Below, piece after piece: positions 1 to 23,100 of a stretch of DNA of 64,000 nucleotides (within the stretch, counting starts at the first letter, position 1; each line of letters opens with the position of its first letter). The DNA is from Raillietiella orientalis (Eukaryota): the NCBI GenBank assembly GCA_036172245.1, contig JAYWIR010000050.1:248001-312000 (forward strand), written 5' to 3'. Under the pieces are notes generated by a model, which was not told where the DNA came from, searched no databases, and saw nothing but the letters and a program-made list of their open reading frames with translations. Made by a program: the position numbers and the translations under genes.

Positions 1-353
1 CTTACCATCTTGTGATCCTTTCAAAATATTTCCTTAAGATCGATATCACTAAACAATCTTATCAATAATAAGGAATATAGGTTGATGTTCAGAACATCAA
101 TTCTTAATACCTTACATATCCTAATATGTTACAATTCATACATCACTTTTTAATTTGACTACTAAAAAAAAAAAAAGTCACGTAAGAAAACAACCATCTG
201 TTTATGGCGCTTTTTAGCTAACACAAGTATATTCACTCATATCTGGAAACATTTACATTAAAGTCTGCTATGATTAAGTATACTATTTCATCTCAAGTCA
301 TATTAATAATCTAAATGTATAATTATGTACTTAAAAAATGAACCCAAACACCA

Positions 354-1340
354 TCACATATCAACTGGAGGTCTGTATTTCAGTTTTAATGGAGAATCTC
401 TGAATCTCCACATAGTGACATATACAAATTTTAATGTGTGATCCCTTCCTAACAGTTCGTCATTGCAATAAAGATCAACCTAAAAATAATAAACCCTTTA
501 GGAGGTACACACTGAAACACTATACCTCTTTATATTTATCAATGCTATCCAATAACTTCAATGCAATAAATTTTTTTAAATGCGTTACTGTTGCTTGAGA
601 TGAACACCTCACAAATTTTCTTGGAAGTCTTTCCAGACAGTCAGTTTCATTTTCCAGACAGATATTAACCTAAGAAAAAAAATCCACTTGACCAATGAAA
701 ATTTCACCCTGAAATCTTTCAAGAATAACCATGAAATCTTTACCTGTTCATCAAATCTATGGAAATCATTTTGTTCCTGAGATATGTTTTCTGATATACT
801 TTTGACACTGTCTGCATTGATATCTTTGGGGCACAGTAACCCTCTGGATCTATAAAAGGCTCGCTCCCTAGTTAATTCATCTAGAACATGGCAGTAGCAA
901 ATTAGAGATTTTCCGACATCTTAATACGTTAAAAAGAATACCACCTCGTACCGTTCGAATACCTTTTAATAAATTTGGAACCAACTTGTAAACAATATCT
1001 TGCATGGTTCTATCATTGCTAATGTAATTCAAGGGATGAGACTGGTGAATAACGATACTGCAGGCGGGGCATGTGTTGTTTTCCTCTAAGTGTTTAACGA
1101 TACACGACTTACAAACTGAAACGAAAACAACTCGATGAACACTTTCGCGGCTGGGATTTCGAGCTACTTCAAAACAAACGCCCGTATACGTTTTCGTTTT
1201 ACACATTTTCATGCAGAAGGGCAGCTGTACTTACATGTATGGAGGCATTCGGTTACAGTTGTCGCATCAATGATGTAGCCCTTGCACAACTGGCATGTAA
1301 TGTAATTATTCAGAGTCCTAATCTTCATTCTCCTCTCCAT
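354..1340 (-). CDS. PCGF3: Polycomb group RING finger protein 3 (l(3)73Ah-like), 5 coding exons, 221 aa
   Basis: Exons 1235-1340, 963-1115, 744-880, 526-669 and 354-479 join in frame through GT-AG introns. Translation begins [54 protein letters not shown] (C3HC4 RING), continues ..[24 protein letters not shown] and ends in a RAWUL-type tail [43 protein letters not shown]. Confidence 0.95.
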
Positions 1341-1429
1341 TGCAAACACATCGAAGGCGGTCGGTTTCAGAAAACCGGAGGCACCCTAACAATTTGAAAC
1401 ACATTCATGCACACACCAGAAGATGAGAG

Positions 1430-2110
1430 AATCTCCCTGCCAGCACCTCATGCACTCGCACACGGCAGAACCTTCGCAGAAGACCCGGTCGCTGGCAAAA
1501 AAGAAAAAAGGAAAGCGAGGGGATGGGATGGGGGAGGGGGGAGAGGAAAGGCAAAAAAAAAAAAAAAAAAACGGGGGAAAACGGGCCCCTCCAAAAAAAA
1601 GAAAAAAAAGGAAGGAAACTCACCGGGTGGGCCGTGGCACTACGGGCGAAACATGGAGGACTCCATCGGGCTGTCGGGACGTTTCCGCAGGCCAGAAAGA
1701 GTCCGCCGCCGCGGCTTCCGCAAGGGCAGCAAAGGCGACGCAAGCGAGCGGGGCAGCTCAACCGAGGGGCGCAGGAACAGCCGTCGGCCCACTTTGGGCA
1801 TCCCCGGACGCCCCCGGCGATGGGCAATGAAGGTTACATGCGCGTTGGGTGCGTCGCGGAGCAACATTTGCTCTCTTGCATCTCACAGTATAAGAAGCCT
1901 CGGCGAGCGACGTGCGTGGGGGTTGCACGTTAGCTCCCGAAAAATTCCCGAATCGGGAGACGGTCTCGGTTTGCTCGGATTCCTGGCCGGGCACAGCCCG
2001 CTGGCAATCCGCCTCGGTTGGAATTATGGACCGAGGAGCTTGGGGCTGCAAAGCAAAAGGCAGCTCCTGCCGTAGACGAAGAATGGACAAGATTCCCTTT
2101 TGCTTACGCG
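1430..2110 (-). promoter_or_regulatory. CpG-rich promoter and probable non-coding first exon of PCGF3
   Basis: Abrupt GC/CpG-rich island upstream of the ATG. A minus-strand donor CCG|GTGAGT at 1623 and an acceptor ttgttag| at 1386 define a plausible 5'UTR intron. Poly(A) tracts lie at 1553-1571 and around 1593-1609. Confidence 0.55.
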
Positions 2111-5100
2111 TGTAGGCAACGTATTCGGGAGAGGAACGATGCTCACTCTCTTTCCTACCTTGCATGCCTTCACGAAGATGCTCTCTTATCTTTACGGGTT
2201 CTCTCATCAACCTGCAAAAAATTCGCCATCCAGAAGAAAAAAACACCACGTGAGAGTTACGGTGAAAACTGTTGTGGTACCCCTGAATAAATTGCTTTTA
2301 AATGCTTAAAAGTCGGTTTGAAATCAAGGACAATGGAAAACGAAGCAATGTAAAGGAGAAAAATAAAAACAAAAACACTGGATGTTGCGAAATAGAAATT
2401 GATAATTTGCATCCTTCTTCATATCTTGTCGGCTGCTCGTCTCCTAGTGTGAACACGGTGAAACGGTATCCTGTTTTACGTTTCCATTCCAAAAGATGAC
2501 TGATATTGCGAGATATTACTGCTCCTGGAAATAAAGAAAGGAAGCAATCACTCACTGGTAAACCTTGAGCCAAACCCATGACTGCAAATCGATGAAAACC
2601 AATGTAGTCTGAGAATCAAAAACAGGAAACCGTAGTTTCACAGTTAATTAGTCGAAGAGAGCAACTCGCAGGGTTTTTCTTCTTCTTCTTTCTGGCCGGT
2701 CTTTAAAAGTTTCGAAATAGCGGTATCATTCTATTGGTTTCATAAGTTCTGCAACTATTGAACTGATGTTGCGGTCCTGCCTTGGCTCATAATAACAATA
2801 ATAGTACTCAAAGCTTATCTATAAACTTCCAGCAGAATCAACGAGGGAGCAGTGCACAGGCAGATCTCAGTGTTTGTATTTTGAGTGCATTCCGTCTCTG
2901 TAAATAAGAGAGATACTTACTGTAGGTGTTCCATGATCATAGAGGATTCCGTGGATACCAAACTATCGTTTGTTTTCGTCTGAGAACTGCGAAAGATAGA
3001 ATATGAGCTTGTTACGACACTTTTCCAGGTTCTCTGCTCGGAGGAGAATGGAGGAGGGAATGCCAAAGAAGAATAAAATCCTTGGATAATTGGCAAACGA
3101 TAGAAATCATGTAGACAAACTCCTGTGGAATGCTAGCTTTAGCATTGGTCGTCTTCTGGTGGTATCACTGGTGGACGGAGAATAGATGGGTACGGAAACT
3201 CGCTTCACTGTCACAAAAGTGCCGGAAGCGAGCAGATGCAGTATTCCTGCAATCTTTTGGCATACATCTTGCAAGTATTCGCAGATGAGGAAGCTTCATT
3301 CGTACCAACTGCCCGCATATCTAGCACGAGTCGAAGAACTTGAAAGAATCTCAATACAAATACCACAGACGCCCAGAAATCTGTTGCAATCGTCTTGACC
3401 GAAGGAATGGAGAGAAACAGAGCTCCAGTGATGTTAGAAGGTTCAACGAATCTGAAACCTAGCTCCCTTTATCCATATTATTCTGGGCTCAGAGAACAGT
3501 CACTCACAAAAAAGTACATCTGCAACCAAGATGCCATGGGAAAAAAAGCAAAAGTATTTCAAGTCGAGACGAGAGGAAGGAAGGAAGGATTCAACCAAGG
3601 GTGAACAAGAAGAACTTTCGAGATTCATTCATTTTTCAGTTCCTTCCTCTAACTTTCTCCAGCCTCAGTTGAGATCCGTATGGCACTGCTTTCCCTTCAG
3701 GTGCCGGTCCTTAAAGAGCGCACACCGTTTCGGAGCTAAGATGTGTGCAAGGAATAGGGATAAACCTGGATTTTCTTTCTTGCCTTGTGCTCCGCGTCGT
3801 TCTCGTTTTCATGGACAATGTTCGTGAAGATACGGGACTGCGAACTGTACGGGAAAAATGCTAGCGGGACGAATGCTGTGGGATCCAACTCGGTTCACCA
3901 CCATCGCATCAGTCGAGCAGGGGCGTCTGAAGCTCCCCGGTAGAAGCGATAGCTCCCGAGACTGGAGAAATGTCTCCTTCATTACTCCCGTTTCCGCAGC
4001 TTACCAGCGATGGCCCTTTCTTCGCGCAGACAGCCGTCCTCAACCACGAAGACGCCGGTGAGACCGAACTCTGTCGTCAGCAGGAGTTCTCGTCACTTCG
4101 TTGCCACAGTTCGTTTCGAGTGTGTGTGGTGATCAAGAGATTATCACCGGTCAGTCTTTGACTAATGGCTTCGCTTCCAGCAGCGGCCGACGGGGGCCGA
4201 AAATGAACCCCCTCCCAAACACGACTACTTGCGGCACCCCTGAAAAGGAATTTCATGGACCGTTCGTCGTTGGTGCGAAGGCGGTCTTCTCCAAAGTACG
4301 CCTTCGCGTTTCTGCCCGGCCACGCCCGGACGCTCAATCAAGTAAAGACGAGTGAGTGCATGGAACGAACATGGCTCCAGTGGCCTCCTTAACCTCTCTT
4401 CCAGGCGATCACCAGCCAGGAAACAGCTGCGGCAAGTGGTGGGAGATCGCGGTCGTGCCAGTGGCGCCTGAATGGCGGAACGAAACGCTGCCGCACGTTT
4501 CCAATCACCGCCGACCGCATTCTCGCCTCTTCCTCAGGAGGGGTGCGGTGGAGATAGAGGGAGCGGGATCCAGGATGTCGTCCGGGATCCGCCCAGAGTG
4601 AAGTCGCCATTGCGATCTGACCCCGTCCTGTGAAAGGCGAACCGCGTCGCCCACTCGAGAACGCGCTCTGGATGCTTCCACGGAAACTGGCGAAGGGAAG
4701 GAAGTCAGGAAGGGTGAACCGCTCCTTCCCACTCTCGGAAGCGACTCATTGACCTGCTGGGTCGGATATCAAGAGCAGACGACGCTCTGCAGGGACTGGA
4801 AAAGAAAAGTTCCAAGGTCGTCCACGAGATGACGCTCAGAAAGCCGCCAGCAGCATCCGTTGGTACTTCCGCCACCGAAGGCAGACGCGCCTGATCGGGA
4901 AGGCGACAGCGAGCTTTATGCCCGCCCAACGCCAACGCTCGGGCCAGTAAGGTGGCGAACCCCCCGGGGTGCCGCCGAGCGCGCACGCGGCTGCGGGTTC
5001 AAACCAGCGCGGGGGACGCGACGCTAACTGAAATAAGAGAGAGGCATCAGCGAGCGCAAAGCAAACAGATCCACTTCTTCCCTCCCTCCCTCCCTCGCTT

Positions 5101-5382
5101 CTGCTGCCACACCAGCCCTTAGAAAGCCAGGTCGACACGGCAAGAGACAAGCAGCAGTTCCGAACGCCGGTAGAGGACGAGGGACGAGGCGGAGGTAGCA
5201 CGGGAACGCAGGGGACGGGAGAGCAAGCCCCCTTCCCACCAAGAGCACACAGAAAACTATCCTTCCTACCACCCTCAGCACCTTCCCGAGTCCATCCACC
5301 CGATGATGGCGCGCGGCTCTCTCCTACGGCAGGCAGAGAGGGGGAGAAGGAGAGGGACACAAAGTGTTTACAAAGTGTTCCT

Positions 5383-8300
5383 CTACTCTACTATTGGCGT
5401 CAAGTTGGAAAATCTCAACAGCAAGTTGTGCCTTTCTGTCTTCAGGCTCTTGGACACGCTGAAATCACTCTCACTTCTCGAAAAGACATCTCCCTTACTG
5501 TTTTCCGGAGAGGGCGCTTGGACCCGAGGATGCGCTGCGCGGCAGGCGCCACCTTGCGGCGACGGCCGCCACGGCGGCCAGTTCCTCGGATTGGCCTCCT
5601 CCGAGGCGCAAACCTCCGGCTCCCGGTCCGGGGACCAGGCCTTCCTTTCGAAATGGGAACCTCCGGGATGCTGCTGCCGCCTCATGCTGGGGTACGCCAA
5701 GTACGCGGCGGGGCGGTTGGATCGCCTGCCAGGAGGCCTCGCGGCGGCAAGGTCGAGCGTCGTCGAGTCGTTGTCGTCGTCGTCGTCGTCGTCCGGAGAC
5801 GACGCGCGCCTCGCTCTGCTGGAGGAGCAGCCGCAGCATCGCAGCGTGCCGTCGTCGTCCTCGTCTCGGTTGCCGCTGCAGCAGCCTCCGCCGGGGACCT
5901 CCGAAGAGAGCAGGCGCGGTTCGCAACGTGTCGTGTCCTCCTCCTCGTCCAGGATTGGTGCCGTCGTCCCGGCGCATGCCGACGACGGGTCCGCGGCCCA
6001 TGACACGCGGTAGGGGCGGCCGCCGCTGGCGCACCTCCTAGGCGGCGGCGGCGGCGGCGATTCGGAGTCGTGCTGACGCGCTGGGGGGTCGCACCCGCCG
6101 CCGCCGCCGTCGTCGCAGGAAGAAGGTGCCTCGTAGAAGCAGAGGCAGTTGGTTCCCCTGAGGACGTTCGAGTTCTTGGTCAGGATTTCCGACTGCAGTT
6201 CCACATGCTGCTCCGACTGCGTGCTGAACTCGGACGTATTGCAGTGCAGGTTGTGGTACACGGAGATGCTCCCTCCGAGGTCGGGGGACTCGTCTGCGCT
6301 GCCGACACTGTGGTGGATCACCGCTGCGAGAGAGTCCAGGTCTCTGGGGTCCTGCGGAGATGCTGCTTTGCTCGTCCCGCTGCCCTCCGCTGGCTCCACG
6401 TGAAACAACTCGCCACTTCCCCTTGATACAGAACCGCCGTCGGTTCGCCCTTCGTCGCCTATATCCTCATCACCAGCAGCAGCGGCGGCGGCATCACCGT
6501 CCTTCTCAGCCCAAGGCGATCCTTCGGTGGGGAAGGACACCACGCTCGGATCGCCCGTCCCTCCAACAGTCAAGTCGTCGTCGCTCCAGAAGCCTACAGA
6601 CGGCGGTTCGTCCTCCTCTTTGGCGGGCTCTTGGGCCGAACCGGGTTCCCGGCCGCTTTCAGCCTCCCTGGGTGTGGCGGTCTCTCGCCGGCAGGTTTCC
6701 TCTGCCTCCGGTCGCCGTCCTTCGAGGACAAGGGCGCCGCCTTCTCCGGGGTCGCATGCATCCTCCGCCTCGAGCGGTTTGTCTCGGTCGCAGGACCCTT
6801 CCTCGGGAAGACGGCGGTTGGCTTCGGAGAGCGGCGGCGGGTTGGCTGAGACGCTCCTGGCTATTTCGGAGAGCTGCTGCAGCACGATCATCAACTGGGA
6901 GATGATGCTGCTGTCGAATTTGGCGCCTCCGTCAGGTCTGAGCGCCTGGCTGCACTCGCGGTCCCTGCTGTGCTTCGAAGGCTCGTCCACCCCTTCGTTG
7001 TCGCCGTCGGACAGGATCACTTCCAGCTGGTTGTCCACGACGAAGTCCGTGTCGCTGATGGTGGACTGCAGGCTCATGCAGTCGAAGGAATCACTCGCTT
7101 CCAGCGCGTCCCGATCGGGCGGCTCCCGCTGCCAAGGAGACGGGTCTTCGAGGTCGCTGTCGCCGGACGAAAGGGGAGCGCACTGCGCGCCCGACCGCGT
7201 GTCTGCGAAGGAGGCGGTCTCCGGGTTTCCGCCAGAGGATTGCGGAACGCGGGGGAGGGTGGGCGGAAGGTAGGACATCGACGGCTGCAGGTGCTTCCCG
7301 CAGCCGAGGTCCCTTGTGATTCTTGTGAGCTTGTCGCGGAGGCGCGCTATCCTCTGCTGGATGCCCATCTTCTTCATCGGCGCTGCACTGCTGGAGCCGT
7401 TGGAAAAGTGGGAAGAGTCCAGGTCGTCTGAAAGACTCGTTTCCAGCACAGTGTCGATAGCGCCGTTCACGCTCAAATCGAACACGAAGACGTTGTGGTG
7501 TTCGTGCTCTCTTCTGCACTTTAGCCGACCAAGTCCTTGGCTGCTGCAACAGGTAAGCTGATGATTGCAGGATTTCTGACCTGCACCGGATCGCTCTCTG
7601 GAACTTCTTCGCTTCCCCACTTTGATCGACACTTCATTCAGGAAGATTTCGCTACTTTCCGCCGAAGAGGCTTCCACCAGATTCTCCGGGAACCTTCCTG
7701 GAGGCAGAGGCGCGGGAGAGTTAGGACCAGGGAGAGCGCAAGCCGCTCTGCGCAGGCCACCCCCGTTCCCGAAGACACCGTTCTGGCCGACCTCAAGCCT
7801 CTTCCTTCCAGCCTGCGGGAAGGAGAACCAATAGCTCCCTCGCGGGCTGCTTCGCGTCTTCGTCCGCCAGAGCGCTGCTCCAATATGCGCAGGCGCACGC
7901 GTCGCGAAGAGAGTGGGCTGCCCACGAGGGAGCTATTGGTGCAGCGGAACGGGTCATTCCCACGGTGCTACCCGCGGAACCCACCATACACGCCTGCTGC
8001 ATCGTGCCGTTAGACGGCACTCTCCACCGAGTCGGCCGCGGTCGGACTTCCTCGAGGAACAGCCGAGACGTAAAGGAAAGCGACCGAAAGTTCTTCACCG
8101 ACCTCATGGGATTCCATTTCAGGTTGCAGAAAGAGAACGCACGCTTTCTTCTTTCGCTATTGGAATCCGCCTAGCACGAAACACTCCATCTACCTCCCTC
8201 AGGGCGGCATTCACCTTATAGGCGCCGCAAAACGTACGAGATCTCATGCAATGTACATTTGCGAAAGCAGGCACCGAATAATCGACGGCGTGGAATCGCC

Positions 8301-9858
8301 AAAAGTTGGGGACTCGAAGAGGAACTTGGATTAGAAAATGCCGATCTTTTTTTTTTTTTTTTTTTTTTTTTTTTATCCTGGATCCATGCTGAGACACACG
8401 CGGAGGGCAGAGCGTTCCGGCGAACCGGCAAACCACGCAGCTCGCTCCTGGGTATCACGAAACCAAGTACCAAAACCGCTGTGAAAACGGTGGGGGCTTC
8501 GTTCCAGCACGGTCGACGCAACGTTGGGAGAAACCGGGCCCTAGCGCCCGCGGGCGAGGTAACCGAACGAACGGCTCGACGCGCGAAACGCTCGTTTCTC
8601 TCAGAGGCCCTCAACATGAGAAACCGGGATAGGCGGATTCCCGGGAATGGCGTTTCGTCGACGGCAGACGAAATATGGAACGGACGGTCTTCCGGAGCTA
8701 GAACACCTCATCGAACGCAGCGTCAGCAGCTGACGTTCCAGAGAAAAGGATGGCAGGCTTTCGTGCGGTGCCACGGGAACCATGTCGGTGCAGCAGAATA
8801 GCACGGACTCTGTCCCGGACCAACCACCTCCGATGCGAGTGGGCACCGTCTAAAGGCACGCAGTATTCCTTCTGCTGCGGAGCCGACTCCACAGGGCGAA
8901 GGGATGGAAACCCATCAGGAAATTAAGAGGAAAAGCTTTGGTCCACATTCTGCACTTTTTGTAGAACGGGGAAAACCATGAAACGGAGGGCAGTGCAGCT
9001 CGGCATCAGTGCACCGAGTGATTAGCAAACTGGAAAATAAATCCACGTATCCAGTGGGCAACCAGGACTTGCACAGCTGCCACCTATACATGCTCACGAA
9101 ACCTCTGTTTCAAGAAAATTGCACCGATTTTCACTTCTTCTAAACTGTCAATGGGCATGCGAAATGGAACGAGCGATAAAATGGACGGAAAAAAGGGAAC
9201 CCCCAAAAAAAAAAAAAAAAGGCCAAACGCAATTCTTGCTTGGCATCATCCGCAATGACGTGAAATAATGCAACAGGTCAGGTCACCTCTACAAGAGCAA
9301 ACGCTTCAGTTGGTGCTACTTACTCTCTGGATAATCACGATGCCTGTCGCATCCGCCGAGATTGCGCGGGGAAGCGCCTGGATGGTGGGAGTCCGAATAC
9401 AAAGAAGGAACCGTGGATGAATTATCACATCCACGATTGTCTTCTGGAGAAAGGTACAGTATTTCCTGAAGTGTGGTCTGGCATAGGGACGAGCTGTTAA
9501 CATTCTCGATGAAATCGTTTAAACTAAATGAAACACCCTGGTAGGCAGGCAGTTCGCACTTTGAATATTCCGTGGGTAAATTCTTGCTCGTCGTAAGCAA
9601 ATCGCCCAGAAGTACTGAATCAGTTTCAAGGTGTTTATTCGCAGCGCTAACGGAGGCTCCGGGGCTGAAGCTTTTCGGGTTGCTGGCGCAGCTACTCCTT
9701 TCTTCGGAGTCTGAGGCGGAGTCGCTTGCACTCGGAGACCACGGCCTGCGCCCGTCGTCAGCTGCTTTACTGCCCCCGGGCAAACTTATGCCTTCCACCA
9801 CGTGAGCCCTCCAGCGCTGCTCGCAATCCACGCTAGTACGGCAGCAAGGCACGTTCAT
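5383..9858 (-). CDS. Uncharacterised, largely disordered Ser/Asp/Glu/Pro/Gly-rich protein of about 949 aa, 2 exons (9324-9858, 5383-7697)
   Basis: The ATG at 9858 is in GCCATG context. Exon 1 ends GAG A|gtaagt (phase 1). A strong acceptor cctaactctcccgcgcctctgcctccag| at 7698 continues in phase 1 into the 764-aa ORF, which ends NLTPIVE*. Total 2850 nt, divisible by 3. No family recognised; extra exons inside the 1.6-kb intron cannot be excluded. Confidence 0.65.
5773..5793. repeat. (GTC)7 coding microsatellite (poly-Asp on the minus strand)
   Basis: Seen directly. Neighbouring GGC/CCG runs at about 6041-6110 encode poly-Pro and poly-Gly in the same ORF. Confidence 0.9.
8347..8374. repeat. 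T28 homopolymer in the intron of the orphan gene
   Basis: Seen directly. Further long A/T tracts occur at 1553-1571, 9205-9220 and 23769-23792. Confidence 0.9.
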
Positions 9859-9878
9859 GGCGGAGGATAACGGGAAAT

Positions 9879-12373
9879 TTACAGCAACCGTTCCACATGA
9901 CGTAAATTTATGTGTCCACGCAGCGCACACATCTGCAGATTCTAGAAGGAACGATTCTGTTATTTATTGTTGCTGCCCATTTTTGCGACAATCGATACCT
10001 TGGAATATGCATGGCGCAAATTACGGTGCAACCGTCGAAATGCTTCACTTTGGAGTCGCCGCTCGCACTCGAGGACCTCCGGCAGCCCGCGATACTTTCG
10101 CATGGTCCGCTTGCATTTTTCGCGGTAGGAGATGACGGGTGTCACACGGGAAACTGCAAATGGTTAAAAACGCACGGCAGCACGAGTACTTACTCAAGGG
10201 GCACATCGTCCTGCTTGATGGTCCGCATGAGCCCTCCAAAACTCTCCGCCGGTTCAGCTGCGACGCTGCTTCATTGCGTTTGTGGAAGTCCAGCAATAAA
10301 AACTGCCTACGCTCAATGCTTCTCAGCCACCTTGGTTGCTTCAGGATCACGTGCTCGTGCAAGCAAAATGCCTCGATGTCCTTCGACACCCAGTGGCCAC
10401 TTTCATCAACAACCAAGAAGTATGCGCACTTAGGTGCCACAGATACTCCACTATCAGCCTGAGAAGCCGTCTGTATCGAGCGATCTGCCTTCTTCAGCAC
10501 GCAAGACGGATCCTTGGGCTTTTCCTTCTCAAACAGCATGTTACTTTTTGCATTCGACATGCGTTGTTTCTCACTACGTGTCATACATCCAACACTGAGA
10601 GTACTTCTTATCTCCCTAAGAACTTTTTGATACCTCCGTAGCTCATGTAGCTGCTCAGCTAATGCAACACTGAGCTCTTTCTCTCTACTTTTCTTAGCAC
10701 GTTTGTGCTTCATATCCTTGCGTTTTGGCTTACGGTGCTGGACATAAAAAGTCTTGGCTCCATTTGAGTTATTTGTGGATAATGAAGCACTAGAGCATGT
10801 CATGTGAATGGACACGGATGAGACAGGGTACGAGACTGAATCTACAGGGCTCACATGCGACTGAATTTTCTTACATGAAGTTTCATAAGGCAATGAGAGT
10901 GCTGATGAACTTTCAGAAGTGCTATACATGCCAACGGCATTTTGAAGATCACGCAATTGGCATGTCACCGTGAAGCACGTACTGACCAAAGAATCAAGTA
11001 GTGCTTCACAGGTGTGCATTAACCGCTCTTTGAGATTCACTTCACCATTACCCATGCCAGCACGCAACCTGCTTGGTACTGCTGGAACATTTTTGGTTGC
11101 ACTATCAGCATGAGGTACATCTATGCATGGAAGGTTTTCATCTAAAAACACGTTTTCCTTCCTTTAATAGTTCATCCACTTACTTGTACATTTCTTTGCT
11201 GAAAGATTATTCGAAACAGAGGACTGAAAAAACCTAAACAGATAATCATTAACACTGTAAACTATACATACTTGCTCAAATGTTTCCAATAATTGAAAGC
11301 TTTTATAATAAGGTCCATTGCATACTCCTGCTCTCCCACTATCCCCTTCAGCATGTCTTCAGTTTCACCTAGTGTTTGACAAGTTCCTCGTGCACTCCTC
11401 TGCGTACACTGACCCAATTCTGCAGGTGTCATCAATTTATGCCATGGTCTAATTAAAAAAGCTTACCACACATGATCTCATTAAATTTTTTAAATTTTTC
11501 TTCAAACTGAGCCAGTGGTTCCTGCTTCAAAGGATCCTTTTGACGATTAACATCTGAATGCTGGTTACACCTATAATTTGCATCTTTCAGAACACTGGAC
11601 ACAACTTGGGGCCAGTAAGGAGAATCACTATCCGACTCAACTTCTGTTCTTTTGGTCCATGCAAAATTAGGATTTAATTCAAAATTCTGTAAAATGGGAG
11701 AGGAATGAGAAATAGGTGGAGTGCTGTGGTAGAAACACTTCCTAACTGCCATGACGGATGCTTCTTCACTTGCAGGTGTAATTGTATGTGTAGAAGAACT
11801 CATACTAAGAGTTTGGAATTTTGTGCTTAAATTATTCACTGTTTTCAATGGAACAGAAGATTCTTTATTATCATGAAGTAGCAGTTGCAAACTAAGCTCC
11901 CTTGGTTTTAACTTCTCTTCATGATGTGCAGGAGCATGGACGAAATGAACAAACGAATCGGACAAGGAACTGGACTTCTGAGGAAATATTTGGAACACAC
12001 TTGGACCTTTGTCAGAATCTAGAGATCGTGACTTGGGTGTGTTTGAAACAGGCTGGAAAAACACTTCATTCACTGGTTTGAAATGCGAACTTTCATGTGG
12101 ATTTGAATGAATTAATTGCTGCGAATACGACTGTATTGCCATCTTTTCGAGTGGACTCAAGGGTGAAATTTCATGTTTCCATTTTTTGTATCCTAAATCA
12201 GCACCTTGATCCCATTCAAGGCGCCGTGATGATGAGGCACCACTGAGAAATGAAACTTCCGATATTGGGCTATGTTCAAAGGCTTCCTGATTTTCACTAA
12301 CACATGTAGAATCAGTTTCTGAGCATGAATACAACAACCGATAGTTGTTACCACTATCCTTATGAGTACTCAT
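9879..12373 (-). CDS. ALMS-motif-containing centriole/basal-body protein (Alms1-like), 6 exons, about 756 aa
   Basis: Exons 11467-12373, 11272-11419, 11184-11233, 10194-11141, 9999-10153 and 9879-9941 (introns 47, 38, 42, 40, 57 nt) total 2271 nt. The C-terminus LKQPRWLRSIERRQFLL...ISYREKCKRTMRKYRGLPEVLECERRLQSEAFRRLHRNLRHAYSKNLQMCALRGHINL matches the ALMS motif pattern (R/K-x-Y-x-x-LPEV). N-terminal RRLEWDQGADLGY resembles a motif I recall from insect Alms1-like proteins. The start codon and the 38-nt intron are less certain. Confidence 0.75.
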
Positions 12374-14719
12374 CGTAAAGCCAACACATATTTATAAAGA
12401 ATTACATTGATTCCTTCGGCTGCTCCGACGAACCATTTGAAAGAGACAGTAGAAATGAAAACCTTAAAATACAACATCAGTATCAAAACGCAAAAATACT
12501 CTTGCGACGTTCACCTAGACTGATGCAAAATTGACATGAAAAGGGCAACCATCGTAAGAGGCACCATCGACCTTCTAGCAATAAACACCTCTGGAACGGC
12601 AAATTATGACGAAGAAACACGAGAAACACCAACCTTTTCCCCGATCTCCAATAAACACGTACACTATGCTCCCACTCAAGTTTAAACTGAAAGCTCACTT
12701 TTCTAACCGTTAATTTATGCGCCACAATGTTATCAACTGCTAGTGAAATTTATACGGAAAGTTTTCTTGTCCTTTGAAGAACTGTGAAAATATGTTCCTA
12801 GAATGTATGGTTCTAGAATTACGATGTCAACAAATAAATTCTATATCCTCAGTTGTCCAAATTTCTTCCAATCTTCCAATTGCAATACAGCACTGGCGAT
12901 CGCAATGCTTGCAAGATTAGATTTTCTACTCCATTGCAAATCATCGAAGATGAGAATTCACGTTAATTATACATCGTTCGATGCACATCACTTATTTTTA
13001 TTTGCAAAAAATGATGTACAGATCGTAGGGAACGTTTGTGGAACTTCAAAATAATTCACAAAGTACGAGTCTAAAGTAAGTGTGCGTATAAAATTCTGGA
13101 ACGATATGGAGTTATTTTTATTGTCTCAGCTTTTCTCTTGCCGCCTGAACTCAATATGCTCTCATATGCAGATTCAGTAGAATTCGAATTCATTTACGTC
13201 GTGTAGTCGATATCAATTTTTAGGCTTCCTTCGCCTGGGAATCATGGGAAAAATCCTCGGCAAAATCTTCTGAATGCTTGATAGTTTTTAGAACATCACG
13301 ACCGACAAACCTTTACGATGATACTGTTTTGACTCATCATCATGCATCTTCCGAAGAACTGTCTGTAGTAGTAAAAAGTCGTATAAGATTTTTGAAAATT
13401 TTTAATATTCGTTTGAACTAATCTTCAAGAAACGTCTTGACAATTCAAATCTTTCACTTAAATAAGTAAAAAATTATCTTCTTGCCTAAAGCTAAGCAAA
13501 ATCACATCTGTTATTTCAAATGAAAAAATGCTAGGATGTATGCTATTAGCTTAATAGTTGTGACAAAGAGTATGTCGAGTCGATCAATTTTAATAATGAA
13601 TTATCATATAGTCATGTGCACTCATCTTACATTAATTGTTCTGCTTGTTTAGCGCAGAATAAATTCAGGGTGATAATTATGGAGACTGTTCTTCAGTACA
13701 TGATAATTTCGTCACATGAAAAAGCAATGATATTCAAACTTTTCATAATCACTCAGAAGCAAAATTTTTATTCCATCAAATATCTTTTTTTTTTTTTGTT
13801 TCAGGGTCTATAAGGGGAAGGCACTTTCTTTTTTTTTAAGTCCATCCATCAGGGAACGAAAATACAACCAAGAATAGTGTTCACAAGTCTCAGTAGTCCT
13901 TGGTTACAGTCTTGAAATGATCACTACAAGAGTGTTACCAGCCACTTTGTTTTTCAAATTTTGCTTGGGCGAAAATCAGAAACGAAAATTTGCAGGGCAA
14001 GTGTACAAATATTCCATTGGTATGGAGAAGAACTCAGGTTAAAACAGAAATCGCACGAAAGTCTTTCGAAATATGTGTTCATCTGAAAAGCTGGAAATGA
14101 CACTTTGCCGCATGAAATGTTTTGCAAGCTCAGAGCCGAGCTTTGTAAGATTCCAGGCCTCATGAAATGCTTATGATTAAGAAGTTTTCAAGCTGGTTGA
14201 TGAAGGAATTTACAATTCTAAAGTTCATTACGCATGAGCTCAAAACTCCTCGAGTGATGGTAATATCGTAAATGAAGAGATGAAATCAAGCAGACAAATC
14301 TAACCGTTTACTTCCAACGTACTAAAAGCAGAATGAAACTGTATTGCGAATCGGAAGTGCATTCTCATGAACAGGATTTTTCTTAACTATGTTAAGGCAG
14401 CGAAAAAAACAAATTACCACAGAATGATGCCACTGTAATAAAAGCGGGATCAGTCTGCAACAGCATCGAAAAAAAACATTTATAATTCGCTTAAAATAAG
14501 TTGATTTATACTACGCAACTTGTGGTGTACAGAACATCTACTACAGCAGGAAATGCAAGATTTGTCATTATCAGCCGAGCAGTCGTAGCAGTGTCACTGT
14601 GCGATGTTTATCAAGTAAACAAGATCTTATAAACGGTTTGCTTTGCATCCATCACATTCAAAATTAGCAAAGTTTAAAGACCTGGCTTTCCGGATAAGCG
14701 GAGGCACCGCTGCATCCGA

Positions 14720-16560
14720 TTCAATGACTACCTCCTCTCAGGACCGTGTATTTTGCATTTGCCTGGCAACCGACCCCGCGCTCTTTGCGACTGTTTAGCG
14801 AAGGCAGCCATTCGGAGCTCGGAAAACCGAGAAGTCCACTGTTCCATCGGAAAACTGGACTCGAACCTACCTTTTTAAAATGGGTCTCATTCTAAGCAGT
14901 GCTGATCTCGAGGGATCTATCTCGCTCTTAGCAAAAGAGATCCCCAATTCGAGCACGTTAAAGTTATTGTACCATTCATCCAGGATTACTTGGTGTACAG
15001 TGACAGCGGCGATCTCGTGGTTGACCCCACGGAACAAGGCATGGCGCTCAACGGAAAAACTATCAAGGTTTTGTTAGAAAATCGAGCTACGGTCGTGCAT
15101 CTGGACGGAGTGAACCTTTGCATGCGTCAAAAGGTGATGTTGAATCACTCCCCATAGTACGAGAAAGTGGTAAAAATCTCAGAGAACCACGTCATGGACA
15201 AGGTTTTCTCGGGTGAGGCGTCCCTAAACAAGATCGTTTAAGAACTCGAGGACCCAGAGTCAGGTGTTCCTAGACGAGCTGTAGCCTGGCGTCCAAGCGG
15301 ATTGCCGGCAGCAGTTCGACTTTTTGCAGGAATGTGTAGCGTGTGGCCGCAGGACCAGCGTGTTTCCTAAAGCCAGCTGCTGGAAGTGCGGCAAGACGGC
15401 TATTTCGGAACGGGGCGCACTCAGCCACAGGGGTGCTACTGCTGCGGAGATGCAGCACACGTTGTGCGGCAAGTACAACGCCTATGCTCTTACCAACGTG
15501 GAAGGCGAGATAGCCCCTCTCGAAAAGAACCTGAAAGCCGCCAAAGAGGATGGAGTTTGGCGCTGTACGACGCCCGAGGAAACAAAAGAAGCGTTCGAAC
15601 AGTGCTGTGCCCAGTTCTTGCGGAGCGGACTTCTCCCGAACAAGGAGAAACAAAGGATTCTCCATCATGTACTTGAGAAGCCAGCAGCAGTGGCTAGTAG
15701 AGCAGGACATCACGGAAGGAGAGATCAAGACACCCTACGCACAGCTACGCAAGCATGTAGCGGTAGGACATGACAGTGTTCCCAACGCGCGTTGCCTGCT
15801 GGACAGTGTCCTGTTCTATGAACTCGCTGGACGGATCGAAAAAGAAGGGAAGCTGCCTGCCTCTTTCCACGAGAGCAGCGTGCGATAGCCTCCAAAATGA
15901 GATCTCACCTTACCCAACCCAATGGTGGTAAATACTCATGTAAAACTGGATCTGGAATCTCCGAAATCATTGTCCTGATGGAGAGAGGATGGTTCCATGT
16001 GGCAAGCAATCCTTGGCATCTACATCATCCAAGCCTCATCGCAGGCAACGCATTGGGAGATGATTCTGTTCCAGTGTGGGCTCACAAGTCGCAAAATGCA
16101 GCAGATCTAACTTTAGTTTCAAACAGAAACAGTATTGGCAGCAAAGGTCCTGTTGGAGGCTGCTTGTCACCAGCTGTCAAGAAAGGTTGTCAGGTAGCTC
16201 AAGAACTCCCAAGGAATTTGTCCTGGCATGAAGGCAAGCCAAGAATGAAACCAGTATTCCTCTGTGGTCCGAGAAGAAGGTAGCACAAGCGCCTTGCTAC
16301 AGCCCTGAAACTTCAAGATACGCACTACCTAGATAGATCATCTGCCATGAATGTCTGTCCATGCTTCCCACGGCTTACTGGCGCTCTTGTATGGGACAGA
16401 TGACCTGAGAGCTGCTGCAGTTGGGCAAAAGGAGTGATGGGATGAAACTGATTCAACATGTCAAAAGGAGCACTGTCTCGCCATCCAAACCAAGAGTAGT
16501 TCCCCAAAGCAAGGAAATCCGGTAGAGAGAGCTGGCCATGGTGATACCATTCCTCCCATG
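14720..16560 (+). mobile_element. Degraded L1/Tx1-like non-LTR retrotransposon (ORF1 zinc-knuckle region plus fragments of the ORF2 3' end)
   Basis: Frameshifted CCHC-like knuckles (CVACG..., CWKCGK..., GCYCCGDAAHVVRQ) at about 15330-15480. They are preceded by an RRM-like stretch GMALNGKTIKVLLENRATVVHLDGV with in-frame stops, the architecture of Tx1/ZCCHC3-type ORF1. Boundaries approximate. Confidence 0.55.
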
Positions 16561-19399
16561 GACCACAGAGAAAAAGCTCCAAAGAAAACTAACGCTGTCC
16601 ATTTCAGGTTCTTGTTCACCCTGAGGGAACACTATAACAGTCAGACTGCATCCCTTTAAGACTGCGTCCCTGTACGTGCTTGATACAACCTACGATGATG
16701 GTAGAGGAAATCTGGTCACAAACCTGGGATATCAGTCCTCAGGCCTCTAGCAATTGGAGCAATCATGTGGAGCCCCAATCTAGCTTTGAAAGTACAAGAT
16801 GAGCTCCCAATGTTTTGCCATGGAGGACTTTTGAGCAGCACAGGACAGGAGACTCCAATTTGAAGTTGTGATCAGCTTGAGGTAGAACAGAGAACCCTTT
16901 CCACATCTTTGTGTGCCAAACCATCCTCTGCAACTGAAAAGTGGTGAAGCATGCAGCATAGGTCAGGGTTTTTAAATGGAGAACTCTGATAAGACGAATG
17001 AAAATGCAAAGACATGTTCAAGAAACAGCAAGGTATATATTGATGGGACTGGTAAAAATGCAAATGGGACTCAGGGGTTGTGGAAGGATGGAACTGCAAC
17101 TACATTCTGAAAAAGATATAGGATGCAACCCAAGGCTGGTGAATCCTCTCTGGGAAGAATCTTAAACAAGAGAAGACATGCCATCCAGGATGGAGAGAGA
17201 CCTCTGTGTTGTTATGCTGGAACTCGTAATTGTTTCTTTGCTTTCTACAATACCTTTTGTCTTAGTGGCAAAAGAAGTCTTGAGAAGAACAGATTACCCA
17301 ATCACTTCTCAGAATGGAGAAACACCTAAAAGTTCAGTGATTTGTTTCTTTCTAAGATGGATTCAGTTTAAGTATGTCATGCATTTTGATTCTGATCAAT
17401 TCATGTCTCCATTGACAAGCACCTTATAAAGCACTCTGATTCATGTAACATGTTCAGCAGACTGCGTATTTTCTATATTTAAATTCACTCTGATGGACAG
17501 AGACTGAATCAACTTAAATCAAAGTACTCTTCCCTGTCTTAATTGCCTTTCTAACTAAAATACTTTGGATCCTATAAACATAACTTGGAAGCTGCAGTCC
17601 ATAAGAAAATTCAAGTGCTAGTGTGCTTGTTATTGGGAGATTTTGCAGAGCAGGCCATTCGTAATTAGTGAAGATGAATTCCATCTTGAAAACATTACTC
17701 ATTATTCTTTCCAATAGAAAGCAAATACTGTTTATTCTCTAATAAAATAGAAAATAAGATAATAAACAAGAAAGACAATAAGACAGGTTTGCGAAGCAAT
17801 CTTTTACAACAGAAATAAATAAAACTAATCAAGACCGATGCACCTAAATTAAAAGTGTGCTGAAATGGTGTCCAACCTGAGAGAAGATGCCCACACTCTC
17901 AAAACAAAAAAAACCATCAGCAGTGTAGAAATTGCAATATAATAAAAAGGAATTGCCTTAGCTATAGGTTTTGTAGGGTTACAGATTTTAAATCACTTAT
18001 GTACTTTGGCTGCCTCGGTACAGTTTTATCTATCAGCATTTCTATTTACAAATTCTAAAATTCTTCACATTAGGGTACGATTATTTACACACGTTTCCGA
18101 TACATGTTCACAATTGATTAAACGATCTAACTGAAATTGCTTTTTAAGGACAATCATGAGATGTTTTCATCTGTAAATTACTGTGGGCACAAAATATTTA
18201 TTGAATTTGATTTGCAAGATTTTATAACTTTAATCATGATCTTTCCTTTGGATAACACAGTGTTGCATATTTCGCTTCCTGCAACAGTGTTACTATGAAT
18301 CTCATTTTCGTTTATGAGGTTTTTAATAAAAGAAGTTCATTTTGGCACCGTTCCCGTTTCATTCTGCAAAGAAAAAAACATCATCCTTGGATTATGTGCC
18401 AAAGGAATCAGAACTGCAGACACTGAAGGCTTGCCTATTACAACCATTTATAAAATCGAAAATGATTCGTTATCACGACGAAATAATTTAATATAAAGTA
18501 CATTAATAGGGACCATTCATAATAAAGCATTTTGGGAACATTAACCTCGAATAATATGCCAATCGAGCATTCTGGTTCTCCAATTGACACCCTAGTTTGA
18601 AGTTCCAGTTTGGATTTGTTCCAGTGTTTGTAGTGGTGATTTCCAGATAAACCGGACACTAGAAATTATTAAAAATATTTTTTCCTAATTTCGCAGGCTG
18701 TGAATGTTAAACTCTAAATCACGCTACAAGTATGTAAGGAATGACACCTTTATAAATCATCATCTAAAACAATGGTAGGGAACCTTTCTGTCACAGTAGA
18801 TCGCGTGTCTTCAACAAATGTAATGCAGACCAGCAGCTTAAATACAACAAATGCCATTTTCTAATGTTGGAGGATTTCTTTAAGTTTTACATAATTTAGA
18901 GAAACTCTAAATTTAGAGAAACTTTACCTGTCTAAATATCAGGTTAGGTATCTTACTCGAATTATCAATATGGGCACTGGGATGAAAGTCATAGGAACAA
19001 AACAATCATGTTGTTTGCATTTAATAGTAATTACCTCCATGTAACACGAAAATAAACAATTATTGAAGGGAAGCTAAAAGATTGGCACTCTAAAGAACGC
19101 CTTAGAAACATCCTAGAACACCAGTTATTTCTCAACCTTAAATTCATTAAACTTCAGTTATTCTACAATTTGTCCTCATCAGGTAGATTGAGCACATTAT
19201 TTAGTACCAAGTATACATTCTTTAGAATCGTTAAACAAAAAATGAATGGAAGATAAAACAGCTAACATCTGACGAAAGACATATAGTGAAATATTGTGCC
19301 AAAATTAATTTAAATATCTATGTAATCCTATATGTTTATGGCATTCGTTCATCTTTCTGTCAGTAAAATTAAGTAAACAGAAAATGAATTGACAGTATG

Positions 19400-20170
19400 G
19401 CTGAAGTGGAGTTCTGTTAAATGTCGCTGTCATCTACGAGAAACGTCACCCCATCGATCCCAGTCGCTGATCTCTTTGCCATTTCTGGAAATTCATTACC
19501 TTTCCGATGCACGGACAACGAGGTGTTTACGTGGGGTTCCTGGAAGTGCTTCCACATTGTACCGTGGTTTTCACATTGTACCTGGCGGTAATACAGCAGA
19601 CACTCACGATCTTCCCCCATCCAGATGTCAGAGAAACGCTGCAGTCGAGGGCATCCAAGACTGCACGACTCCTAGAGAGAGACTTCATGACATGAGACTG
19701 TCAGGCTCTAGGCACAAAGACGGGCTCGGTCCTCCCGGATCTCGTTCGCATACCTCCTCCGGTACATCTCCCTGGTTCCGTCCATGGGACCGCTTCTTTA
19801 GCCAAGAATCGGAGGACACCCATCGGGAGCTGCGTCCGCAAGGTTTCCTCCGCGTGGCAACACCTAAGTCCTGCAACGCCGGTTCCACTTCCTTCGGCTG
19901 GTCCTTCGCCTCGCGGCTTGCAGTGGCCGAAGGAAGAAGCGCCCACTTCGCTGCTGTTGCTCTGCTCAAAGTGAACCATGGGAGTGGGAGATGTTCAGTG
20001 AGCATCTCTGCATACTGCGTGGTTCGCACAAGCAACGGTGTGTTTTCGAAGGCGATGCTTCTGCACGAACTGCCGTCACAGCTGCAGTTCGTCTCAAAAA
20101 GTGCACACACTGGCGTTCGAGATGGGATCCTTGCGTGTGAGCAAATGCGTCACCACGAATGCGTCACATG
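19400..20170 (-). mobile_element. Degraded 3' fragment of an L1/Tx1-like ORF2 (zf-RVT-like region)
   Basis: GC-rich patch in AT-rich DNA. Across frameshifts the minus strand reads KWALL.SATA..., CCHAEETL...AKEAVPW and WGKIVSVCCITARY. This follows the W-x-LLH...C..C...ET..H...C..A..VW...AKY pattern of L1-clade C-termini. Confidence 0.4.
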
Positions 20171-23100
20171 AATTTCAAGCAATTTCTAGAGAAGCACAAA
20201 TAATTTTCGCTCCAAATACCTATTTAGTTTTCCCGTTTGATCTCAGTAAAAATTTTCCATTCCTGGCAGGATGAAGCTCCTCTTTTCCATCATTTTAGGA
20301 GCTCATCATTTTGCTGCTTGTAGATTCGAAGCACTGAAAGCAGAAAGAATAAAAGAAAGCACATTACAAAGTGCCAGAGTTAATTACACGCCTCACACGA
20401 GCCTTGATAATGACTCAACCCCAAAAGTAACATCCAAGAATGGAAGAATGGGTCTTTTCCTGCAACTGCAAATTACTCAACATGAATTTTGTTGTTTCAA
20501 TGTGAGGGATAGTAGGTTTGCACGAATGATGAGGTCGATACAGTGACGCCAATTATGCCGCTGGACATAATGCTGCAGACCACCGGCTCCCGTGTCTGGT
20601 ATAGGAAATGATGCAGTTGTCGTGGAAGCTTCCAGACGGTCCTTAAAAACTGGGATGGTACTTTGTAGAAATAATTTCGTTAGTCGAGGAAGGTTGAGAG
20701 TTTCCTCAGGAAGTAGAATTCGCATTTCTCACTCACAGACTTTCAAACGATGACCTTGCGTTTGTGTTTTCCATCTGCTCGTAGCATTTTTCTTATGCAC
20801 TCATCATGTTGGACACTCGGAAACTGACCCGAAGTCCCTCTTTGCATCAAACATTTTTGGGACGCATTTTTTGATAGAAATGATTTCAAAAGCATATGAG
20901 CTTTATTAATCCCTAAACTCTCCCGAATTTCAAGCTTTACCCCAAGTGTTATTCTGGCTTGGATACAGCTGCCAGATGGAGCGTTTGATTAATGATTACA
21001 GTGTTCACGTGTTAGATTTAGAAAAATATTCGTTGTGACTCTTTTGATTCGTTTATCTTATGAAGTTCCTGCTTTTTCGCTCAGATGTATATTTTCTTTA
21101 TATTCCTTTATATGTATCTATAATATCAAAATGGATAGACGAATTTTCTCAAAGCCATAATTAAAAACCCCAATATTATTTGTGCTTGTCTAAAAATTGC
21201 TTAAAATTCATTCCTTCATTTCTGATTTTATCTTTAAGGAATATGGAAATTTTCCAAGAAAAGTTCACAAACTCCTCGAGTACTAACATCTTCTAAGAGG
21301 GCAAATTAGAAAATTTCCCACTTCTCCGTCTGTACCGTACTTTGAAGCACTTTTTATGCGATCAATTCCAAATGTGAATTCCCCATTTCGACTCGCTAGG
21401 TTTTCTTTTTTATCCTTTGGTAGTTTTTTTTCCCGTTGTATCGGGTTCTAATATTCCCGACACACTTGTAATTTGCGGATGATTGCAATGAATGTAAGGC
21501 AGTCAGTCTGTAATTCATTTCACATTGAATTGGAGAATCGCGAATGGTAATCAACTTTTCGAGGTCTGGAATTTTCGTCTCCTTGCAAAAAGAATCATTT
21601 GCTGCAGCTGCTGTACATTGCCTCTGTTCTTGGGATGGTCTAAAAATTACGGTCTCTTTGATGCCATTGATTGAGCTCTCTGTCTTTCGCTCCTGGGCAC
21701 ACATTGCACTGCAGGAAGTTCCCAAAAAACAACAGCCAGTCTTTCACTTCAGAGCCCTGGCCGTTTCGTCGGCCTCAGTGTTGCTTTCCGAATTTTTCCC
21801 TTGGTGATACATATATGCATACGTATATGCAGATAGAGCTCCTGAATCCCTCAATTTGTTCCTTCCTGTCGTTATATAAGTGAGTTCGAAATTCACTACT
21901 GATGGGAAGGTTCGGAAGGTAAGCGCATTCCGATATGCATGTGTAATTCATACGTGGTAACCATGAGTGTGGCACTCGATACCAAGTAGAATTTCCTCAA
22001 TCAAGTCTATTCGGTTTGTAATTAAAGCGATCGCTAATGTGTGTTTCTTTTTTTTTTGCACTTCAAAATTCACCAATTTGCTACACATACAGGGAATTTT
22101 CAAGGAATTATTCGTTTTCCCTAAATGGGTGTGAAGATGGAATGCCCGATGTTATTACTAAACTGATACTTTCTTATTATGTATGAAGTTGCTGTCAAGA
22201 GTCTCTAGTTTTGATGCCCAAAGGATTGCTGAGAGGCAGCTTGAAGATAGGAAATCGAAGAAAAATCACTATCAGTCTGAAAAGCCTAGTTTTCCTTGTG
22301 CAAACATTTGTAAACTTCTGTTTCTGTGGGCAAAATTAACTTTTCTAAAGCTGAAGTGGAAACCCTCAATTTTAATTTGATTCAATAAACCGTTTTCTTC
22401 TATTCTCTTAAGATGTCAATGTTTTTAGAAATGATCTCCAGAATGCATAAACGACTGATGCACATTACCGGAGGAATGAAATGGAAGCAGTAGAAGAATC
22501 TTGTCCAACTGTTTTATTAAACTGACCACTGCTTTCAAGATTCTGAAGATGAAGACAAGAGACTGTTTCTGAATCGATCAGTCATTAGATAATTTGGATC
22601 GAGATTTTCAAGGTGACTCTTGAAAGTTTAGGAACGAATTTATGATGCCGACCTAAAAGCCTGAATTATCATTTGCTTCAACATTTCTATTTTCTTTTCT
22701 TTCTGATCAGGGTTACAATCAACGACTCGGAAATAATGTGAAAGTTGGAAATTCATTTCATTTTCGATAACAAGTCAGTGTAATACTTAGAACTGCTTCC
22801 AGTTTGACATTTTGAAAGAAAAATGTGAAAAATTAATTCACATAATCATTATTTTACATACTTATGTCGATTCCTCTGATCGAACTTTGAAAACCATAAC
22901 TAGTACTTAATGACTCTCAGCGCGTATAACTGAAAACAGTCGGCTAACGTACTCGTGGTGTGAAGCCGAATGGAAAGGATAACATCGTGGAATTCTTTTA
23001 GGCTCCAAGCACCTCTATTATTTGATGACAGTTGGAACAAGTTTCTGCCGAGCACTGCGTTACCAAAAGCACTTGCACTTTATGATGATGAGACCCAGTG

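Follow-up and report, generated by a model that had tools for sequence, protein, structure and literature searches.

Genes that lie on the same strand and almost touch each other have been described in several animals. In Drosophila, the 3' untranslated region (3'UTR) of a gene commonly overlaps the 5' end of the next gene on the same strand, and 159 dicistronic pairs are annotated in FlyBase release 6.04, many of them with alternative monocistronic forms and most of them not fitting ribosome scanning (Crosby et al., 2015; PMC4528330). Where operons are resolved by a spliced leader (SL), leader splicing needs an unpaired acceptor ahead of the downstream start (Satou et al., 2006; PMC1488885). 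Here we compare with these systems a locus in a 64,000-nucleotide (nt) stretch of DNA from Raillietiella orientalis (assembly GCA_036172245.1, contig JAYWIR010000050.1, positions 248,001 to 312,000 of the forward strand), below called the window; positions are counted from its first letter. On the minus strand, the stop codon of a gene that probably encodes an ALMS-motif protein is followed after only 20 nt by the start of a second large open reading frame (ORF), ORF2. We tentatively read the locus as two separate minus-strand genes that overlap head to tail, each with its own mRNA, in an arthropod-like invertebrate genome; judged from the sequence, this reading has somewhat less than an even chance.

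A first-pass annotation of this DNA had described the junction on the minus strand as CTG TAA, 20 nt and GCC ATG AAC, and this is what we found, with the stop codon of the ALMS-motif gene at 9881-9879 and the ATG of ORF2 at 9858-9856. Between them lies a single short element:

9859-9878, minus strand: spacer from the ALMS stop to the ORF2 ATG; 20 nt, pyrimidines at 16 of the 20 positions, no AG, no polyadenylation (poly(A)) signal

That the spacer holds neither a poly(A) signal nor a splice acceptor had also been noted before and is correct (zero AATAAA or ATTAAA, zero AG). The AG dinucleotides nearest to the ORF2 ATG on this strand are located at 9943 and 9934 upstream and at 9834 downstream. 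The first AATAAA past the ALMS stop, which the annotation had placed inside the second ORF, was located there by a minus-strand scan (9639-9634). When the region 9300-9900 was shuffled with its dinucleotides preserved, an ATG opening at least 160 codons arose within the first 100 nt in only 9 of 5000 shuffles; thus, the ORF behind the ALMS stop exceeds chance. It should be mentioned that the ALMS frame has a second stop, TGA, seven codons past the TAA, which overlaps the ORF2 start as ATGA (9855-9858, minus strand). We take this overlap as chance.

The size claimed for ORF2, about 949 amino acids (aa) from ATG 9858, stands for the spliced sequence and not for the contiguous one. The contiguous ORF comprises 180 codons (9858-9316, closed by TAG at 9318-9316), whereas 949 codons and a stop are obtained once two exons are joined in frame. 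On sequence grounds we consider this two-exon model (9858-9324 and 7697-5383) highly probable:

9324-9858, minus strand: ORF2 exon 1, 535 nt; ATG in the context GCCATGA, 178 codons plus 1 nt, donor AGA/GTAAGT at 9324/9323
7698-9323, minus strand: ORF2 intron, 1,626 nt
5383-7697, minus strand: ORF2 exon 2; acceptor cctctgcctccag/G at 7698/7697, 770 codons and the stop TAG at 5385-5383

Both splice sites agree with the consensus (GTAAGT donor, pyrimidine-rich cag/G acceptor). The frame of exon 1 meets an in-frame stop two codons past the GTAAGT donor, and ATG 9858 is its sole in-frame ATG.

Exon 2 certainly looks coding. Its GC content by codon position is 0.62/0.54/0.75, and the content at third positions (GC3) reaches 0.78-0.86 in 9 of 13 consecutive 150-nt windows between 7500 and 5551, the other four (6750-6301) giving 0.60-0.66. 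It has zero in-frame stops, while stops are present in the other frames. Frame preference was then scored with stop codons ignored, using two codon models, one from the ALMS exons and one from the ORF2 core. In the 318 nt from the acceptor to the first in-frame ATG of exon 2, which is at 7377 (7695-7378), the ORF2 frame is preferred by about 0.25 nats per codon; in the 234 nt ahead of the acceptor (7932-7699) it scores worst, and chunks of the ORF2 intron show no frame preference. Since the segment 7695-7378 is coding-like and has no in-frame ATG, coding begins at the acceptor rather than at ATG 7377, which calls for a further coding exon upstream. Between 10200 and 7698, only two segments lead from an ATG to a donor in the right phase: one of 61 nt, which scores poorly, and 9858-9324 with its 535 nt. 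With the ALMS codon model, the frame preference of exon 1 is +0.178, compared with a best-minus-second mean of 0.029 and a maximum of 0.092 in 121 background windows from 12.9-25 kb, and the predicted frame is preferred in both halves of the exon. GC3 rises along the locus from 0.40 (ALMS) through 0.55 (ORF2 exon 1) to 0.75-0.86 (ORF2 exon 2), and exon 1 sits in less GC-rich DNA than exon 2. The splice join, the frame preference and the search for a first exon thus support the premise of the annotation that a second coding gene lies right behind the ALMS stop.

The intron of ORF2 contains a 28-nt homopolymer (A on the minus strand, 8347-8374) and a T16 run at about 9205-9220. Within the window, the ORF2 region is matched only by similar A/T runs (23766-23800 and 40102-40137); apart from such poly(A) runs, no internal repeats and no transposon copies elsewhere in the window were found for 4000-10500. 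An extension of ORF2 past its stop was considered and rejected: a donor-like CA/GTAAGG (5499/5498) and an acceptor (5324/5323) would lead in frame to a 160-codon ORF, which shows no GC3 signal or Pfam match. Immediately past the ORF2 stop (5359-5379) an 11-nt unit is repeated 1.9 times.

The upstream gene was modelled with four coding exons:

11467-12373, minus strand: probable first coding exon of the ALMS-motif gene; ATG at 12373, donor TGTG/GTAAGC at 11467/11466, 306-aa ATG ORF
10194-11141, minus strand: ALMS exon A; acceptor tttttag/A at 11142/11141, donor GA/GTAAGT at 10194/10193, ends in phase 1, within a stop-to-stop ORF at 10045-11163
9999-10153, minus strand: ALMS exon B, 155 nt, with the ALMS motif core; introns of 40 and 57 nt on either side
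9879-9941, minus strand: ALMS last exon C, 63 nt; 20 codons and the TAA at 9881-9879, acceptor ttccttctag/A at 9942/9941, alternative AG at 9934-9933

Exons A, B and C join into an open frame up to the TAA, and the whole product would have about 700 aa. Short introns are typical in the window (two introns of PARP1 measure about 51 and about 57 nt). Exon B alone (51 aa, 10151-9999) matched the Pfam family PF15309, ALMS_motif, with E=0.015 and 16.1 bits at profile positions 78-123 of 133. The match is below the gathering cut-off of 27 bits, the exons having been queried singly and not as a spliced protein. Queried alone in the same way, neither the last 102 aa of exon A nor the 20 aa of exon C matched PF15309, the first coding exon (306-aa ORF) matched no Pfam family, and a word search found no homologue of exon A among longer proteins. 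The match lies at the extreme C-terminus of the predicted protein, as only one 20-codon exon and the TAA follow the matched exon. In Drosophila Alms1a, the ALMS motif is described as the conserved C-terminal region (PMC7535930). Since the C-terminal position fits the family, we accept the ALMS assignment as probable, though not proven. The likeness to ALMS-motif proteins (human ALMS1, Drosophila Alms1a and Alms1b) concerns a basic segment at the very C-terminal end of the upstream gene's product, which corresponds to the distal portion of the motif; the difference is that the match here is sub-threshold and confined to one exon, the remainder of the protein having no detectable similarity. A TATAAA (12391-12396, minus strand) is found just 23 nt upstream of the presumed start codon 12373, which is also preceded by a short upstream ORF of 13 codons (ATG near 12435, minus strand).

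ORF2 lies within a GC-rich stretch of about 9 kb (1000-10500; GC 0.45-0.71, CpG observed/expected near 1) of an otherwise AT-rich genome. A high AT content and a low CpG content mark the 5' half of the ALMS gene, as they do most conserved genes of the window (observed/expected 0.32 over 11001-12000; 0.15-0.5 in conserved gene bodies). The compositional boundary near 10.5 kb falls in ALMS exon A and therefore marks no gene border.

Given this anatomy, the in-frame splice and the coding-like statistics, we infer where both RNA ends and the promoter of ORF2 would lie and that translation would start at ATG 9858. The key element is the following:

9634-9639, minus strand: candidate poly(A) signal of the ALMS mRNA, AATAAA; 240 nt past the ALMS stop, in ORF2 exon 1, where it is read Asn-Lys

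On the minus strand AATAAA was found at 11869, 9968 and 9639 only, and neither AATAAA nor ATTAAA occurs from 9639 down to 3500. The ALMS mRNA would be cleaved and polyadenylated about 20-25 nt beyond the AATAAA at 9639, giving a 3'UTR of about 265 nt, of which roughly 245 nt would lie over the beginning of the ORF2 coding sequence. The mRNA of ORF2 would have its own 5' end in the last ~150 nt of the ALMS gene, in exon C or the preceding 57-nt intron. The simplest start site would be downstream of 9896, with a leader of at most 37 nt and no upstream ATGs. Such transcripts would read through the signal at 9639 and be spliced from 9324 to 7697.

Several findings weigh against separate overlapping mRNAs. 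A start site upstream of 9898 would place two ATGs (9932 and 9898) in the leader of ORF2. After the ORF2 stop (970-5383, minus strand) more than 4 kb contain no AATAAA or ATTAAA; a scan of 5400-1 on this strand revealed no AATAAA and the first ATTAAA at 970. As for a promoter motif, the last ALMS intron contains a sequence resembling the DNA replication-related element (DRE), TATCGATT at 9997-9990, which is not enriched in the window; the idea was dropped because TATCGATW was found 5 times against 3.7 expected and ATCGAT 13 times against 14.1 expected. Under the ORF2-core model, the frame preference of exon 1 (+0.113) is within the background range (maximum 0.134), and its GC by codon position is 0.52/0.53/0.55, that is, a GC3 of 0.55 versus 0.75 in exon 2. 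Finally, the searches turned up no relative for either ORF2 or the ALMS exons with which the start codon and the spacing could be compared.

The annotation had offered two options, a promoter in the terminal ALMS exons, the 3'UTR of ALMS lying over ORF2 coding sequence, which we favour, and a single mRNA on which ORF2 is reached by reinitiation. The second belongs to a broader alternative, in which one primary transcript from the ALMS promoter would carry both ORFs and ORF2 would be expressed via a dicistronic mRNA (by internal entry or reinitiation) or via a processed downstream RNA. The 20-nt spacer speaks for it, since it is too short for a promoter and lacks a poly(A) signal, and so do the Drosophila dicistronic pairs mentioned above; as in a dicistronic locus in the sense of FlyBase, two complete non-overlapping ORFs lie on one strand without a poly(A) signal between them. 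The upstream ATGs, however, are not few and the first ORF is not short. On an ALMS-spanning mRNA, ORF2 would be preceded by an ORF of about 700 codons and by 53 ATG triplets; leaky scanning is thereby excluded, and an mRNA of its own becomes the likelier source of the ORF2 product. Reinitiation after an ORF of about 700 codons is inefficient in eukaryotic translation, so this option is weakened too. Leader splicing would lack the unpaired acceptor that it needs ahead of the ORF2 start: the stretch from 9934 to the ORF2 ATG is free of AG, and the AGs at 9943 and 9934 are accounted for by the cis acceptor of the last ALMS intron. Depletion of CpG, taken as a proxy for methylation of gene bodies in the germline, is confined to the 5' half of the ALMS gene and does not extend to ORF2. 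A shared transcription unit appears rather unlikely. Another way to do without an ORF2 promoter of the kind we favour is to deny exon 1 any coding role: 9858-9324 would be ALMS 3'UTR or an intergenic chance ORF, and the downstream gene would start elsewhere, for instance at ATG 7377 (664 aa), from its own promoter in the GC-rich island. The strongest coding signal does begin near 7500, a 664-aa ATG ORF exists at 7377, and exon 1 has the flat GC profile given above and no supporting homologue or Pfam family. Yet the frame preference reaches upstream of 7377 to the acceptor at 7697, where there is no in-frame ATG; the frame of exon 1 is preferred in both halves and, with the ALMS model, more strongly than in any of the 121 background windows; a GTAAGT donor in phase with the acceptor precedes the end of its ORF by two codons; and comparable ORFs were as rare in the shuffles as stated above. 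We regard an untranslated exon 1 as quite improbable.

Two further alternatives would connect the ALMS frame with ORF2 in one protein. If the 155-nt exon B were skipped, exon A, whose end is in phase 1, would continue into exon C in the frame of ORF2. The locus would then have two products, the second being a fusion of the N-terminal part of ALMS with all of ORF2, lacking the ALMS-motif core, and ATG 9858 would be an internal methionine. By computation, exon A joined at 9942/9941 or 9933/9932 is open to the stop at 5383 (1,300 or 1,297 codons from 11163), and the ORF2 frame is open upstream of its ATG to 9963, beyond the acceptor of exon C. N-terminal exons that are shared and diverge by splicing are known from Su(var)3-9 / eIF-2gamma (Crosby et al., 2015; PMC4528330). 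Nevertheless, we estimate the chance of frame compatibility together with 27 open codons at about one in ten, exon B lies between 40- and 57-nt introns with consensus sites that favour its inclusion, the 105 nt ahead of the ORF2 ATG show no preference for the ORF2 frame, and ATG 9858, with its good context and as the only in-frame ATG of exon 1, fits a true start. Such skipping is therefore, in our view, distinctly unlikely. The other route is a programmed -1 frameshift, in which some ribosomes translating ALMS would slip into the ORF2 frame and produce a minor ALMS-ORF2 fusion in a gag-pol-like manner, at the following site:

9903-9909, minus strand: slippery heptamer pattern A_AAT_TTA in the ALMS zero frame, 8 codons before the stop

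The heptamer fits X_XXY_YYZ, the -1 frame is open through ORF2, and A_AAT_TTA also serves as the slip site of Rous sarcoma virus gag-pol. Frameshift sites are expected to have a stable stem-loop or a pseudoknot at a distance of 5-9 nt downstream. No stimulatory structure was found, though, in four folds of 60-120 nt past the heptamer (z-scores from -0.69 to +0.58, pseudoknots being outside this analysis). A 63-nt fold that includes the heptamer had z = -1.9 and was equalled by 9 of 200 shuffles, with the hairpin starting without a spacer. Moreover, an in-frame heptamer is expected by chance in about 4% of 20-codon exons by our estimate, this one was found post hoc, and cellular -1 frameshifting is rare in animals, which makes this route extremely improbable. 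The joint claim that exon C is read both in the ALMS frame and in the -1 frame, through either skipping of exon B or slippage, and that about 975 further residues would follow in the second frame (27 or 24 codons of exon C and the 949 of ORF2), is likewise improbable. If true, one promoter would give rise to an ALMS-motif protein and a long fusion of the ALMS N-terminus with ORF2.

The ORF2 product of 949 aa would be acidic (isoelectric point 4.76; Asp+Glu 16%) and rich in Ser (14%), with 8% each of Pro and Gly. No Pfam family was found in exon 1, exon 2 or two nearby minus-strand ORFs, and a word-index search with the 849-aa frame of ORF2 gave no homologue. HMMER with exon 2 (770 aa) yielded 0 matches at E <= 0.001 among 1.84 billion cluster representatives, and among 321 pattern matches to ORF2 in metagenome contigs 0 were confirmed. 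In the ESM Atlas the best score for ORF2 was 0.83, under the lead level of 0.9, and the look-alikes were long disordered eukaryotic proteins, e.g., exophilin-5. An AlphaFold2 model from the single sequence without an alignment had a mean predicted local distance difference test (pLDDT) score of 36.4, with two isolated helices, and could not serve as a query in a search for similar folds. As a calibration, the well-conserved Frizzled exon of the window was searched: it found 1,025 proteins, none with more than 50% identity among the best 120 of the 1,025, and the matches were spread across insects, a myriapod, an onychophoran and molluscs. Since the database thus holds no close relative, and the ALMS exons were equally blank, the failure to find ORF2 homologues is weak evidence. 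ORF2 is best called a lineage-restricted or fast-evolving, acidic, serine-rich and apparently disordered protein.

Conserved genes were recognised by Pfam in the right-hand part of the window:

about 33 kb, plus strand: C-terminal exon of a P-type cation (Ca-type) ATPase
37.8-40.0 kb, minus strand: Frizzled
46.6-50.6 kb, plus strand: aquarius
52.6-57.1 kb, minus strand: PARP1
61-64 kb, plus strand: importin beta

With the exception of the ALMS exon, positions 1-25 kb contain no recognisable family; 54 ORFs in 1-5300 and 12400-33000 matched no Pfam family. Eight plus-strand ORFs gave one sub-threshold Pfam match (PF25707, E=0.0086, 15.7 bits versus a cut-off of 50, with no matched stretch). Further GC-rich patches at 1390-2300, 15270-16283 and 19377-20171 contain long ORFs on both strands (up to 264 aa) that match no Pfam family. 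Rfam and tRNA scans of 1-13000 found nothing. Elsewhere in the window, Rfam SCARNA8 was matched at 54194-54316 (minus strand; 54.2 bits, gathering score 53, E=1.1e-07). This match sits in the PARP1 gene, at the edge of the exon encoding the WGR domain and in the adjoining intron.

If ORF2 is expressed as modelled, the locus would show to what extent genes can be packed in this genome: one gene would have its poly(A) signal within the coding part of its neighbour, and the last exons of a centriole-related gene would harbour a promoter or a shared transcript. The two genes would then be candidates for mutual interference, through the choice of the poly(A) site versus read-through or through promoter occlusion. 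Such packing does not simply imply co-regulation. The annotation had expected tight coupling of the ALMS gene with ORF2; interference or mutually exclusive processing seems as likely. Taken alone, the ALMS/ORF2 locus would be one more case of a class already catalogued in Drosophila, with ORF2 as an orphan.

Comparison with the known systems revealed likenesses and differences in each case. In SL-resolved operons without intercistronic DNA (Ciona intestinalis; the SL1-type of C. elegans), same-strand genes nearly touch and no canonical poly(A) signal is found by the upstream stop, as here; in those described by Satou et al. (2006; PMC1488885), the boundary of the cistrons carries an unpaired acceptor AG past the upstream 3'UTR, whereas the ALMS stop and the ORF2 ATG enclose no AG and leave only 20 nt for a 3'UTR. 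The Su(var)3-9 / eIF-2gamma locus of insects would be comparable if exon B were skipped, as N-terminal exons would be common to two products with different C-terminal parts; there, a single frame is used for the shared part, as reported by Crosby et al. (2015; PMC4528330), while the last ALMS exon would serve in two frames. With the same-strand overlapping neighbours of Drosophila melanogaster (PMC4528330) our locus shares the head-to-tail order, the lack of free intergenic DNA and an upstream poly(A) signal past the downstream start. It differs in that the overlap would enter the downstream coding sequence (about 245 nt) and not the 5'UTR alone, and in that the downstream start site would fall in upstream coding exons. 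The Drosophila stoned locus is reportedly the classic dicistronic example with two long ORFs, like the ALMS/ORF2 pair. The dicistronic pairs of Drosophila in general (PMC4528330) resemble the ALMS/ORF2 pair in having two complete unrelated ORFs on the same strand, tens of bases apart, with no poly(A) signal between them; they are defined by a processed mRNA spanning both ORFs. In the pair described here, the 53 ATG triplets in the upstream ORF exclude scanning. On balance, the ALMS/ORF2 arrangement would seem to work like the overlapping or dicistronic same-strand pairs that have already been catalogued in Drosophila.

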